64,000 nt of DNA from Octopus vulgaris (lineage: Eukaryota): NCBI GenBank assembly GCA_951406725.2, contig OX597828.1, positions 61,628,001 to 61,692,000 of the forward strand, in the 5' to 3' direction. The position numbers were made by a program, and so were the translations under genes. The notes under the pieces are model-generated. The model was not told where the DNA came from. It was given only the letters and a program-made list of their open reading frames with translations, and did no database searches. Numbering within the stretch: position 1 is the stretch's first letter; every line of letters starts with the position of its first letter. Shown piece by piece: positions 42,289-50,934 of the stretch.

Positions 42289-42600
42289 TATATGGCGTAG
42301 TGGTTAAGAGCGCGGGCTACTAACCACAAGGTTCCGAGTTCGATTCCAAGCAGTGACTTGAATAATAATAATAATAATAATAATAATAATAATAATAATA
42401 ATAATAATAATAATAATAATAATAATAATAATAATAATAATTAAAACAACAACAACATCGAAAAATACTTTAGGAATGAGAACCCAGGTTCGAAATTTCC
42501 CCAAAACACCTGATGAAAGCTGGAGGGTATATCAGCCGAAACGTTGTGTTAACAAGAAACAAGATGAGGACAAATATCCGTCAAATGTAAATAATGTATA
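42289..42600 (+). mobile_element. Solo tRNA-head + (AAT)n + hammerhead element (SINE-like)
   Basis: A box tggcgtagtgg, B box gagttcgattcc, (AAT)n at 42361-42441, HHR, and tail aaatgtaaataatgta running into (TA)n. Near-identical to 50683-50931 (-). Confidence 0.85.
42505..42550 (+). ncRNA. Minimal type-I hammerhead ribozyme motif
   Basis: aacac-CTGATGA-aa gctg gagggtatat cagc c-GAAA-cg-TT-gtgtt. 5-bp stem I and intact core. Confidence 0.85.
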
Positions 42601-43179
42601 TATATATATATAGATATATATATATTGAGGTTCAGGGTTTAAGGTAAGATTTTATATTTAGGATATAATCTTTAGGAGTTGTGGTTAAAGTACGGATTTG
42701 GGGTTAGGGTTTAGCCTACATCGCAAAAATTTAATTGCGAAGGATAATTTATTTGGTTTTATTTCCTTTCATTAAATATTTAAATATTCTTTAAAGATTT
42801 CCTAAAGTTTTGTTGTTCATTTCTAAATTAATTTTATTTTTATTAATTTCCCCACAAAAAATAACTTTTATAATTAATTCCCCTCCACCACAAAAAAAAA
42901 ATGATAAATCACATCTTGTAAAGAAAAAATAATAGCATGTCACTTTCCATATCATCGCGATAGTGTGGAGAGAAGGGAATGCTCTGATTCGCTATAATTG
43001 CAAAAAATCCCAGTCTTTAGAAGTTCGTAACTTTCTATAATTAATTTCTACCCATCACCACCACCACCAAAGAATGGTTATGATTTTTGTAATAGTCACG
43101 AAAAACTACAATTAAGTAGAAATGTTCAACAAAATCTGAACTAGTGTGGTAAGCCAGAAAGCTCATATGTATGTGTAAA

Positions 43180-43393
43180 GTGCTGAGCTGGCAGAAACGT
43201 TAGCACGCCGGGCGAAATGCTTAGCAGTATTTCGTCTGCGTTCTGAGTTCAAATTCCGCCGAGGTTGACTTTGCCTTTCATTCTTTCGGGATCGATAAAT
43301 TAAGTACCCGTTGCGCACTGGGGTCGATGTAATCGACTTAATCCGTTTGTCTGTCCTTGTTTGTCCGTTCTATGTAGGCAATAAAGAAATAAG
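43180..43393 (+). mobile_element. Family A SINE, well preserved
   Basis: gagctggcagaaacgttagcacgccgggcgaaatgc...ctgagttcaaattccgccgagg...gatcgataaattaagtacc. Flanked by a repeated agaaagctcatatgtatgtgt (43157 and 43392). Confidence 0.9.
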
Positions 43394-45611
43394 AAAGCTC
43401 ATATGTATGTGTCTGTATATGTGTGTATGTGTGTGCGTGTATGAGAGAGAGAGAGAGAGAGAATTGTATGTATGAGTGTGCGCGCGCATATGCGTCAGGT
43501 AATATTTCTCATATAAAACGAAATCTCACACTTAAAGACGAGAGGAGGATGGTTGGCATCCATCGGTAAGTAAAACGCAGCGCTGTATTCCGTCGCTTCT
43601 CTTTACATGTTGCGTCCAAACCCTAGCGATCTAAGTTCCTTCAGGGATGGTCGATTAAGTAACTGACAAAGAAGTACATCACAATGCAAATAGACATCAC
43701 AATTCAATATAATAATTCCCTGTTTAAAATTTTAAAAACACCCAAAATCGATGAATACGTCATGGAATACTTTTTCTCCTATACCGAACAAATATTTGTC
43801 TGCTAAGACCTTTAAATGTTATTTCAAACTCTCGCGTTAAAACAACTGTAACTGGAGAGGAAGTAACAGACAAGATTGTCCGGTTACATATTGTTATGAA
43901 TAAAAGAAGAGTGTTTCAAATATCCTATCACAGTGATTTCTAACTTCGACTTTAATGCAGTAATTTTGAAAAGAAAGAACATAATCAAATAAATCGATTC
44001 CCGTGCTCGACTGGAAAAGTAAAGTTGAAATTGTCAAGATTTTAAGTCAGAACATAACGAACGTAGATAAGTCTTTGCCAGCAAAACGATAAATCCGATC
44101 TTTTTCACTCACAGGAAGTGAAATTAGTGATAAAATTCCTCTGTATAGCTAGCTTCTGTAGAGTGGAACATTTATAAGATTTATCCTGCTGTGTACAACG
44201 TCTGATCCTTGTATTTTTGTATGAATGAAATTTAACGCTCTGTGCATTTTAACACGCCGTAGCGTGTGATTTAAAAGAGCTTTGGTTTCTGTTTCAAATA
44301 GATCTTGTGACTGCGAAGAACAACAGTGGGTAACCTTTCGACCTCAGTGAAATTTGAAAGCAACCCTTGACTAAATTTCTAAGATACACTAATTCATTAA
44401 AAGGGATCAATTTAAAGACAACAACAAAAGAAATTAATGTAAGTTATATGTCTATAAATTGTAATACTATATTTTCCAGCACAAATGTACCTCTTGAGGT
44501 TTATATGAGTTTGCATTCGCCCCCAGTACTTCGTATATTAGCCCCTCCTGGTACATGCGATGAGGCTTTTGTATTAGTAGGTAACTAATTAGTATATTAT
44601 TGCCAGGAGACTGTTGTGTCTCAATGAAAAGAATTCTATAGAATATTTTAATTAAAATATTGTGATGTATCTTCAAGAATGTACAAGAGTCAGATAATAT
44701 ACTCTGAACTGTTCGCATTAATAAAATAATTATGAAAAGATGTTCAAGATGTATTCATTCGTTATAGATTATCGACATTACGTAGGAGGAATTTGGAAAC
44801 TGTGTACATGACCTAAGGTTAAATGAAACCAGTGGTTACTGGGTAAGAGGTTTATAAAACATTTATTTATTTATTTTAGATTTGTTATTAGGTAAACATT
44901 GGTTAACAGCTGTAATCTATTACGTTCAAGTGAGATATACAAAAAATAATACGTGACACATGTATGCATATATGTACACGTGTGTGTGTGTGTAAAGGCG
45001 AATGTGTGTGTTCCAAGTTTTGAGGCGTAGTCTCGCAGCCAAGATTATGAAATTATACACAGAGCAACATCTTTTCAAGAGAAGTTCTTTGACTATTTTT
45101 GAAATTCTTTTTGTCTTCAGACAGAAAGCTAAACACTGCAACATTGTAGAAAAAATTACTGATTAGAAAAGAAAATTAGATTACTTATATAAATTAGTAC
45201 AATATCTTGGAGTAAAATATATAAAAAACGTATTTTCCGAAATTTTTTTAAATATCTACGGGTCAAAGTATATGTCAGTTTGCATATTTGCATCTTCCTT
45301 TTCGTTTTTCTTTTTGCACAGTTTTATTACTCTCAATTTCGATCATCTTCGGAGATGGGGGGGGGGGGCTTGGGACTGAAATTCTGAATGAATTAATATT
45401 CCCAGGTAAACAGAAGATTAACAACATTTTTATGGCATTTTATCCAAAATAAAGTAAATAGTAAATTCATGAGATTATATATGTTTTATGCTTTATACAC
45501 GAATCAATTCGGGCAAAGCTAGCATGAGATGTATGTACATATATAGATATGTAGTATGTATACGTGTACATATTTGTACGTACATGTAAACACACACACT
45601 CACACACACAT

Positions 45612-46540
45612 ATAATTTTTGTCCATTCTTCAGCTAAAACAGTCTCCAGTTCTTGTAGTGATGATGGTGGAGGATATTGACTCTTTACTTGTTTTTCTAA
45701 AATGCACCATAAATGTTTCATGATACTGAGATGTGAGGACTGTGGTGGCCAAATAAGATGTTCAACTTCGCTAGAATGTTCCTCGTGCCATTCAGTAACA
45801 ACTTTGGTTGTGTGAATTGGTGCATTATCATCCTGAAAAATTGTGTTTCCTTCCGGAAACAGTTCTGCAATCATAGGATGGATTTGATCAGATAAAATGC
45901 TTAAATAGTCTTGACTATCAATTCTGCCATAAAGGGAAACCATTGGGCCGGCGGATTTCCAAGATATAACCCCGCCCCAGATCATCAGAGATCCTCCTCC
46001 ATGTTTAACAGTTGGAAGAAGGCAGTCTGGGTCAAATGCTTCTTTTGGCTGTCTCCACACGTATACTTGGCCGGTGTTCAGAAATAATTTTCACGTTTGA
46101 GAAAATAACATTCTTCCACTGCTCTAGGGACCAATTCTGTATGCTTTTACTCCACTCTAAACGCTTTGCAACCTTTATTTTTGAAAGTAGTGGTTTTCTG
46201 ATTGTAGCCTTCCCGTGAAATCCGGCTTTGTGCAGCTCCTGGCGAACAGTTTGTGTAGAAACTGGGTTCTCAAGGTGGTCATTAAGCTCTGCAGTAATTT
46301 TGGGAGCTGTACTTTTGTGATCCTTTCTAACAATTCTCGTAAGAGTTCGACGGATCCTATCTGAAAGTTTAGATTTTCTTCTGGAATTTTGTTTCAACAA
46401 GGATGTTTTTCCCTCTTTCTCAAAGGCTGCCATTACTTTCCAGACAGCACTTCTTGATACAACAAACATTTCGGTTGCTTTCGTTACGCTAGCGTCGGCC
46501 ATACGAGCACCAACAATTTTGGCTCTTTGAAAGTCCAATA
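45612..46540 (-). mobile_element. Tc1-family transposase relic (frameshifted, ends lost)
   Basis: DFQRAKIVGAR..., WSLEQWKNVIFS, PTVKHGGGSLMIWG, FQDDNAPIH and WPPQSSHLSIMKHLW. Confidence 0.93.
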
Positions 46541-47039
46541 GATCGCAATACTACACAGTGGCTGTGTGAGCTACGAAATCCTCGTCGCCACTGTTATATC
46601 GCAATACTACACTGTAGCTGTATGTTCTACGTATTGGGCAAGCCTACTTCATCGTCTGGGGGCGTCGACACAACATATACATACAATGAAGTTACAGATG
46701 TCAATAATTTCTGAAGATATTCATAGAAACTTCTTTTTAATATGTTGAGAATATATGTAAGACTTATGCGATTGGCACATTAAAAAACAGGATTTATATA
46801 AAAGATGTAATTAAGGTGTGTATGCAGAATCAGAAGGGTTAGGTTTATATAATTTATAATTTATAATATATAATTTATATTAGAATATTCATATCAGATG
46901 TATTGTATAATACTATTATTTTTCCCTTAGAATAAATTTATTCCTCTCTATATTTTTATTTTCTTACCTCTCACCCTTCTTCTCTTTAATTCATTCTATT
47001 TACTTAACGTCATCACAATTATCTTACTCTAATTACATA

Positions 47040-50354: not shown

Positions 50355-50511
50355 TATCTATCTATCTATCTATCTATCTATCTATCTATCTATCTATCTA
50401 GATAGATAGATAGATAGATAGATAGATAGATAGATAGATAGATAGATAGATAGATAGATAGATAGGTAGGTAGGTAGGTAGGTAGAGAGAGAGAGAGAGA
50501 GAGAGAGAGAG
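50355..50511. repeat. (TCTA)n joined head-to-head with (TAGA)n, then (TAGG)n/(GA)n
   Basis: Strand switch at tct|aga, 50399/50400. Confidence 0.95.
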
Positions 50512-50732
50512 ATCAGGTTAACTTTGACAATTTTTATGTCTCCTTTTTTTCCGGAAGATCTCGATGTTTTGATGAACAGCCAACGGCGTTGGATAGCATA
50601 AAAATTGAAGTCGCAATCGAGAAAAGCTAGCTGACGTGGAGGACTGGCAGCCATCTGAATACTGGGAAAGAGTTACCTTTATTTACATTATTTACATTTG
50701 ACGGATATTTGTCCTCATCTTGTTTGTTGTGA

Positions 50733-50776
50733 ACACAACGTTTCAGCTGATATACCCTCCAGCCTTCATCAGGTGT
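50733..50776 (-). ncRNA. Minimal type-I hammerhead ribozyme motif
   Basis: Minus strand: acac-CTGATGA-a ggctg gagggtatat cagct-GAAA-cg-TT-gtgt. Confidence 0.85.
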
Positions 50777-50861
50777 CTTGGGGGAAATTTCGAACCTGGG
50801 TTCTCATTCCTAAGGTATTTTTCGATGTTGTTGTTGTTGTTATTATTAATATTATTATTGA

Positions 50862-50934
50862 GGTCACTGCTTGGAATCGAACTCGGAATCTTGGGGTTAG
50901 TAGCCCGCGCTCTTAACCACTACGCCATATACCC
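50862..50934 (-). promoter_or_regulatory. tRNA-derived internal Pol III promoter (A + B box) in a PLE 3' UTR
   Basis: gggtataTGGCGTAGTGGttaagagcgcgggctactaaccccaagattccGAGTTCGATTCCaagcagtgacc. The cloverleaf is imperfect, so this is not called a tRNA gene. Confidence 0.7.

Follow-up and report, generated by a model that had tools for sequence, protein, structure and literature searches.

A Penelope-like element of Octopus vulgaris with a tRNA-derived, putative RNA polymerase III promoter in its pseudo-LTR

In a 64,000-nt stretch of the Octopus vulgaris genome (assembly GCA_951406725.2, contig OX597828.1, positions 61,628,001 to 61,692,000; the whole stretch is called the window here), a short unit with a tRNA-like head, an AAT-rich run and a hammerhead ribozyme occurs twice, once behind the reading frame of a Penelope-like element (PLE) and once alone, which raises the question of whether such a unit is a mobile element of its own or a part of the PLE. 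An earlier note on this DNA had proposed that a PLE captured an internal RNA polymerase III (Pol III) promoter upstream of its ribozyme, and that the tail could be retrotransposed on its own as a short interspersed element (SINE) or a retrozyme. According to our analysis, the unit is the pseudo-long terminal repeat (pseudo-LTR, pLTR) of an endonuclease-bearing (EN+) PLE and consists of a tRNA-derived head, an (AAT)n run and the start of the open reading frame (ORF) with its hammerhead. We hold it probable, though far from assured, that the head is an internal Pol III promoter which sets the start of the RNA, and that the units without ORF (solo units, as distinct from the attached, ORF-linked ones) are run-off cDNAs. 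The first half of the earlier proposal stands as the best reading of the sequence, the head having proved a fixed part of the family on which the 5' ends pile up, whereas independent retrotransposition of the tail found no support: the unit is PLE leader plus ORF start, and no solo lineage was found.

Both copies that the earlier note described are present, at 42289-42598 (plus strand) and 50683-50934 (minus strand), with 94-95% identity over head and body, with A boxes (42293 and 50927), B boxes (42338 and 50882) and the AAT/AAC run, and the solo copy does start near the head. Positions within the unit are counted from +1, the first base of the tRNA-like head, and the six bases that precede it are -6 to -1; the head extends to +77, and body positions run from +101 to +275 with the AAT run collapsed. 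The features of the two copies are as follows.

42289..42598, plus strand: solo pLTR unit, starting at about +4 of the tRNA-like head and ending at the short 3' end class
42293..42303, plus strand: A box (tRNA positions 8-19) of the solo copy
42338..42347, plus strand: B box (tRNA positions 53-62) of the solo copy
42361..42456, plus strand: (AAT)n/(AAC)n run of the solo copy (1-698 nt long in other copies)
42476..42598, plus strand: ATG and first PLE ORF codons of the solo copy, including the second "B box" at 42487-42496 and the AATGTAAAT repeat
42505..42550, plus strand: minimal type I hammerhead of the solo copy, with stem I at 42505-42509/42546-42550 and core at 42510-42516
42538..42545, plus strand: GAAACGTT of the solo hammerhead, predicted cut after 42545; G10.1 is A
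42487 (solo) and 50796 (attached): second "B box" motif, GGTTCGAAAT
42510 (solo) and 50772 (attached): hammerhead core
50964..51690, minus strand: 5'-truncated, decayed end of a PLE ORF (reverse transcriptase [RT] thumb and GIY-YIG), with a premature TGA at 51112-51114, a 17-nt deletion near the end and the family stop codon at 50964-50966
50935..50963, minus strand: 29-nt spacer after the stop codon, ending in a small palindrome, with a TATA-like run just before the spacer
50858..50934, minus strand: tRNA-derived head of the attached copy, A box 50917-50927, B box 50873-50882
50683..50807, minus strand: ATG (50807) and ORF start of the downstream pLTR, with a minimal hammerhead at 50732-50777; C11.1 is U

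The earlier note had taken the attached unit for the 3' untranslated region of the PLE, and it does follow a PLE frame, which aligns with the related protein P0073 at 39% identity over 191 aa across the Pfam GIY-YIG stretch of the latter; its last ~130-155 nt, however, are the start of the PLE ORF, some 50 codons. In an upstream walk, the tail of the unit continued unbroken into the ORF in four copies (L243, L272, L276, L283), and the first ATG after an in-frame stop lies at +122, inside the unit, the majority ORF being 835 aa and the monomer 2,651 nt long; the unit is therefore a pLTR. A relative, P0003 (55% identity), has a similar N-terminal stretch over the ribozyme. It follows that the second B-box-like motif and the AATGTAAAT repeat, both present as described in the earlier note, are coding sequence, and the former was rejected as a functional element.

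Genome searches covered the 2.8-Gb assembly in 227 contigs. A protein search gave 8,396 candidates, of which 150 were scored and 30 loci, including the one in the window, were fetched. None of these 150 scored copies holds an intact ORF, the longest open frame being 569 aa, and the non-CpG divergence of the copies is 4-6%. In that 569-aa real frame RVT_1 was matched with an E value of 2.7e-6, under the curated cut-off, while the GIY-YIG domain was recognised through the alignment to P0073, with no direct Pfam match. The closest protein relatives show 55-68% identity. Viral contigs contained no relative. The single ORF with RT and C-terminal GIY-YIG, together with a pLTR that contains the ORF start and a minimal hammerhead, is what is expected of an EN+ PLE; size, domain order and ribozyme point to the Penelope/Poseidon clade. 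Reading the TGA at 51112-51114 as selenocysteine was rejected because other copies have a Trp codon there.

The hammerhead, which the earlier note had called intact, does have its core in both copies, in the minimal type I form without a monomeric stem III (GAAA-CG-UU, palindrome AACGUU). This form is the one described for PLEs (PMC4209133): A9 is followed by an additional base, and stem III, being palindromic, requires a second copy. The G10.1-C11.1 pair of the family is lost in both window copies (A.C in the solo, G.U in the attached one), and the full core is kept in 63 of the 281 arms that span it. Among linked variants the commonest is at +160 of the family; in the core this is the free N7 position, and in the protein the change is a conservative one between Asp and Glu.

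The head itself resembles a tRNA and is not a tRNA gene. Scored with a matrix derived from tRNA genes of this genome, the A and B boxes together reach 23.1, a value attained by none of 200 shuffles, and they keep the exact tRNA spacing although the tRNA stems have decayed. The family head is tRNA-like outside the boxes as well, fitting tRNA-Arg(TCT) best within a reference set from 30 loci that is incomplete and has few isotypes; none of 300 shuffles with fixed boxes did as well. ARAGORN called no tRNA in the window, and Rfam matched neither tRNA nor hammerhead on the attached copy. Over the whole window, a general repeat search was dominated by microsatellites, and the 150 of 253 Rfam matches listed were driven by microsatellites only.

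At 27 of the 30 ORF loci the head comes right after the ORF, in the order stop codon, 29-nt spacer, +1. A one-off SINE insertion, which the earlier note had considered as a possible origin of the head, is rejected by this, and the head is a fixed part of the PLE family. No separate SINE family sharing the head was seen among 30 heads, which are followed by the body in 26 cases, by an AAT run in three more and by unrelated DNA in one.

Where the copies begin was assessed in two samples, both positional and biased to less decayed copies. The first comprises matches 1-95 of the first 100 listed for a 22-mer of the 3' body, all on contig C1, that is 90 loci or, with three pairs merged, 87 insertions; the second was anchored on the head and comprises 30 loci, with two near duplicates and three that overlap the first. 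The first 30 DNA matches to the unit, in which 25 of the 29 non-self copies are solo, are ranked by likeness to the unit and were for this reason not used to gauge the pile-up. Among the 50 insertions that reach +8, 32 end at -8 to +8, and the other 18 stop at a median of -437, including three at -17 that resemble palindromic junctions but were still counted as survivors. Per nt, the stop rate is 0.064 at -8 to +8, compared with 0.0021 upstream and 0.0030 at +9 to +77 (binomial P<1e-29), about 30 times background. In the head-anchored sample, 27 of the 30 loci start at -7 to +3.

Copy numbers give the same picture. Exact 22-mer matches numbered 5,057 in the 3' body, 2,351 in the head and 757 just upstream, which, corrected with match rates of 19/145, 11/133 and 21/78, respectively, correspond roughly to 39,000, 28,000 and 2,800 arms, a roughly tenfold drop upstream of the head. 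An RNase P-type cut at +1 is disfavoured as the source of the 5' ends because many copies contain -6 to -1. Several copies have perfect fold-back junctions centred on the spacer palindrome, the first G of which, at -6, is where we infer that the RNA starts. The pile-up would in this way locate the 5' end of a PLE RNA from genomic copies.

The 3' ends fall into two classes, at +241-250 and +272-275, which lie 50-85 nt beyond the predicted cut at +191/192; they are two PLE-type reverse-transcription start sites, and the ends at the cleavage site that the earlier note had anticipated are not the ends of the copies. Upstream of 58 of the 87 insertions there is an inverted arm. Of the 50 head-to-head pairs with both outer ends defined, 43 combine a long end with a short one, and 25 are flanked by a direct repeat of at least 8 nt, as against 2% of mismatched pairs. 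Inverted 5' copies, a one-sided tail of 30-40 nt and short target duplications are again as expected of EN+ PLEs, the one-sided tail being described as typical of PLEs (PMC8557442). Arms starting at +193-198, just past the cut, make up 12 of 124 body-internal starts, compared with about 5 per 6-nt bin, this being one of 24 bins. Arms starting at +191-195, which would be the predicted 3' cleavage product, are weakly enriched (L094, L114, L071, L148, L265, L014). Whole-unit head-to-tail arrays were absent among the 87 insertions, with partial repeats in L086/L087, L088 and L089. In vitro, the RT of the Anolis element PAc is reported to start inside the RNA at two sites, with both strands cut and extended and cleavage unneeded, on a template that must extend 172 nt into the ORF, past the start sites (PMC11167929). 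The pattern of 5' and 3' ends in octopus fits, in vivo, the internal initiation and both-strand extension known for PAc in vitro.

The element likely relies for its RNA on a promoter taken over from a tRNA gene, judging from the sequence: the RNA would start some 13 nt ahead of the A box, and no run of four thymines (T4) occurs on the sense strand of the majority monomer (2,651 nt), the mean of codon shuffles being 2.9 (P=0.024). Other PLE ORFs have T4 runs as expected, with 51 observed and 53.2 expected in the genome and 119 and 117.4, respectively, in metagenome loci, L343 included; the real copies of the tRNA-headed family have 19 and 28.6. Locus L343 (JGI1357J11328_10009043, 1920-2200), one of 38 metagenome loci, is a tandem PLE with 38% identity and an intact 855-aa ORF. 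After its stop codon follow an A box, a B box, a short AAT run, an ATG and a hammerhead, the order being that of the octopus family, and its boxes score 24.3, which none of 60 shuffles reached. A comparable pair of boxes was absent from six other hammerhead-bearing PLE ends.

The principal alternative places the start at -6 under the control of a Pol II promoter within the pLTR and takes the tRNA-like head for what is left of an old SINE or tRNA, either a passenger or an RNA structure. Precedents exist in the long interspersed element (LINE)-like internal promoter reported for Drosophila virilis Penelope, with initiator (Inr) and downstream promoter element (DPE) motifs (PMC2377424), and in TATA and Inr-like motifs reported in Adineta pLTRs (PMC3846280); Pol III, moreover, is considered in PMC10886601 to be restricted to short RNAs. 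In our family, the pile-up is preceded at ~25-30 nt by a TATA-like run, which fits either polymerase, and palindromes are described at the pLTR 5' ends of Adineta PLEs without tRNA heads (PMC3846280). What speaks against a mere passenger is that the boxes are perfect in spite of the decayed tRNA stems, that the RNA would start 13 nt before the A box, that T4 is missing from 2.65 kb, and that L343 repeats the layout with a head that cannot be aligned outside the boxes. We deem the Pol II alternative unlikely, albeit one to be taken seriously.

Several further points weigh against a Pol III start. The depletion of T4 is modest, the LINE copy in the window being as T4-poor per kb as the real copies of the family (0.52 and 0.44). 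L343 has 2 T4 runs where 4.0 are expected (P=0.18), both within its first 70 codons and none later; its head matches tRNA at the boxes only, and the two units, being identical, could reflect an assembly loop. The unstranded RNA sequencing run X24 favours neither polymerase: depth mirrors copy number along the ORF, reads fall about equally on both strands, 66-71% of them continue into unlike sequence, and no shared start site was seen. The farther-reaching idea, that the whole ~2.7-kb RNA of an autonomous coding PLE is made by Pol III from a captured tRNA promoter, with T4 terminators purged from the ORF, the uncapped RNA being translated and Pol II having given way to Pol III in at least two distant PLE lineages (the octopus family and L343), is one that we put forward tentatively and with considerable doubt. 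If it were true, internal RT initiation would yield the SINE-like mass of copies as a by-product, which could be one way in which SINEs are born, and, if the head does drive the full element as a Pol III promoter, a coding retrotransposon would stand outside the rule that autonomous elements use Pol II.

As to the solo units, no site is fixed in one class among 73 solo and 56 attached units. In the haplotype comparison, from which 30 likeness-ranked loci were dropped (leaving 49 solo and 52 attached units), the three main haplotypes at +64/+160 all occur in both classes, although at different frequencies (solo/attached: G-T 26/23, A-A 13/6, A-T 4/18). The tree of units is star-like with the classes mixed, and 6 of its 126 inner branches are well supported. 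Head divergence outside the boxes is 5.65% in solo and 5.59% in attached units. This pattern fits several PLE source copies, each yielding both products in differing proportions, and a few of the solos may nonetheless copy themselves. Because haplotypes are shared, no diagnostic site is fixed and the ends are of PLE type, the solos are most likely run-off cDNAs from the PLE's own leader and not a self-propagating SINE. Two observations cut the other way: shared variants cluster weakly by class (permutation p=0.001), and the tree needs 33 changes of the solo/attached label, as against 42 when shuffled.

On the opposite reading, the solos form a true SINE or a Pol III retrozyme: solo loci would be transcribed by themselves, and the PLE enzyme would act on their RNA in trans. 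They outnumber ORF-linked copies about tenfold and retain the A and B boxes with no internal T4; the haplotype frequencies of the classes differ, with a few variants in 4 of 49 solos and in none of the 52 attached units, and one Adineta insertion reportedly needed only pLTR sequences in trans (PMC3846280). With a length below 700 bp and a head that goes back to a Pol III RNA, the unit is also like a SINE, and it carries a type I hammerhead, in its minimal form, as in a retrozyme. Its 3' part, however, is the PLE ORF start and neither a LINE 3' end nor a simple-repeat tail, and its ends are RT start sites rather than the ribozyme cut. With the classes undivided by any fixed site, intermixed on the tree and alike in divergence, and with whole-unit tandem arrays missing from the 87 insertions apart from a few partial repeats, we regard a self-propagating SINE or retrozyme as quite improbable. 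It would be weakened further if the octopus enzyme resembled its purified relative, since the solos are without the ORF sequence beyond the RT start that PAc requires (PMC11167929); this need is carried over from PAc by analogy, which also counts against our own account of the solos. Finally, a stall or self-priming of the RT on read-through RNA at the palindrome (-6 to +4) or at the structured head, with no RNA start there, is very improbable, for although several copies have perfect fold-back junctions centred on the palindrome and palindromic junctions in Adineta were interpreted as self-priming (PMC3846280), the stem has merely 4-5 bp, a perfect junction requires a cDNA end at -6/-7, the stops spread over -6 to +8 with a ~30-fold fall in rate just upstream, and the stop rate within the structured head equals background.

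If the head is the promoter, as we favour, the RNA would begin at -6, and the PLE protein would nick both strands as PAc does (PMC11167929). Reverse transcription would then start internally on the RNA, at either of two sites in the ORF start that are separated by ~25-30 nt. On a head-initiated transcript the cDNA would run out after ~260 nt plus the AAT run, leaving a solo unit, and extension of both strands would produce a head-to-head pair. For a copy with ORF to arise, the template would have to continue across the head, and it might, speculatively, be a tandem transcript or a ribozyme-made circle. The solos would be mostly dead ends, because they end at the RT start site without the sequence downstream. 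The ~28,000 SINE-looking arms, a rough figure, would be explained as products of the PLE's own replication, and therefore a short repeat with a tRNA head is not necessarily a SINE in genomes of this kind.

The window holds further repeats. Another tRNA-headed repeat, at 35792-36233 and ~36330-36650, has A boxes at 36077 (plus) and 35948 (minus) and no hammerhead was seen in it; two copies, 98% alike, are inverted head-to-head about a TA run, and a third adjoins them. At 59991-60409 lies a 209-nt perfect inverted pair whose arms carry a hammerhead-like core with a long stem II, probably the head-to-head ends of another PLE family. More hammerhead-like cores are found at 24301-24323 (minus), which nearly matches one beside another PLE ORF in L334, and at 27281-27308 (plus). 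A decayed RT fragment at 33429-34132 (minus) belongs to a second, distant PLE family, the relatives of which served as T4 controls. A broken LINE with an RVT_1 match (8063-11898, minus) and a broken DDE_3 transposon (45467-46550, minus) complete the list.

Octopus SINEs were reportedly described by Ohshima and Okada in 1994 as OK, OR1 and OR2. OR2 has been cited as a CORE SINE (PMC4758252). With tRNA-derived SINEs as described in PMC3531059, the octopus unit shares its shortness, an A/B-box tRNA head, a very high copy number and 5' ends at the head, whereas its body is the 5' coding end of an autonomous element rather than a LINE 3' tail, and a lineage of its own was not found. Animal non-LTR retrozymes are described as short, PLE-derived repeats with a type I hammerhead (PMC7229834; bioRxiv 10.64898/2026.07.22.740005). 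They form head-to-tail ribozyme arrays, whereas in octopus the copies lie dispersed or in head-to-head pairs, with ends 50-85 nt beyond the cut. Schistosome Sm-alpha and Sj-alpha belong in the same comparison, being short repeats with a type I hammerhead, and they carry Pol III boxes. The TRIMp3 elements Cassandra, Helenus and Ajax likewise have a Pol III promoter derived from a small RNA inside a retrotransposon terminal repeat (PMC10886601), but they are short non-autonomous LTR elements, the autonomous partners of which are argued in the same source to require Pol II, while the octopus head sits in the repeat of a protein-coding element. In the open-licence literature (Repbase and Dfam lay outside this search) we found neither a tRNA-headed PLE pLTR nor a PLE-mobilised SINE. 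The closest likeness is to EN+ PLEs, as represented in accounts of Anolis PAc (PMC11167929), Adineta Pen2a (PMC3846280) and in an overview (PMC8557442): an ORF of ~835 aa with RT and C-terminal GIY-YIG, a pLTR containing the ORF start (the first 12 codons in Pen2a, PMC3846280), a hammerhead at that start, a palindrome at the pLTR 5' end, two 3' ends ~30 nt apart, head-to-head inverted copies and target duplications of 9-15 bp. From these, so far as they are described there, the octopus family differs in a pLTR that starts with a tRNA-derived A/B-box head and in a sense strand without T4 runs, and it is a PLE variant with a tRNA-derived, probable Pol III promoter in its pLTR and with solo units that are probably by-products.

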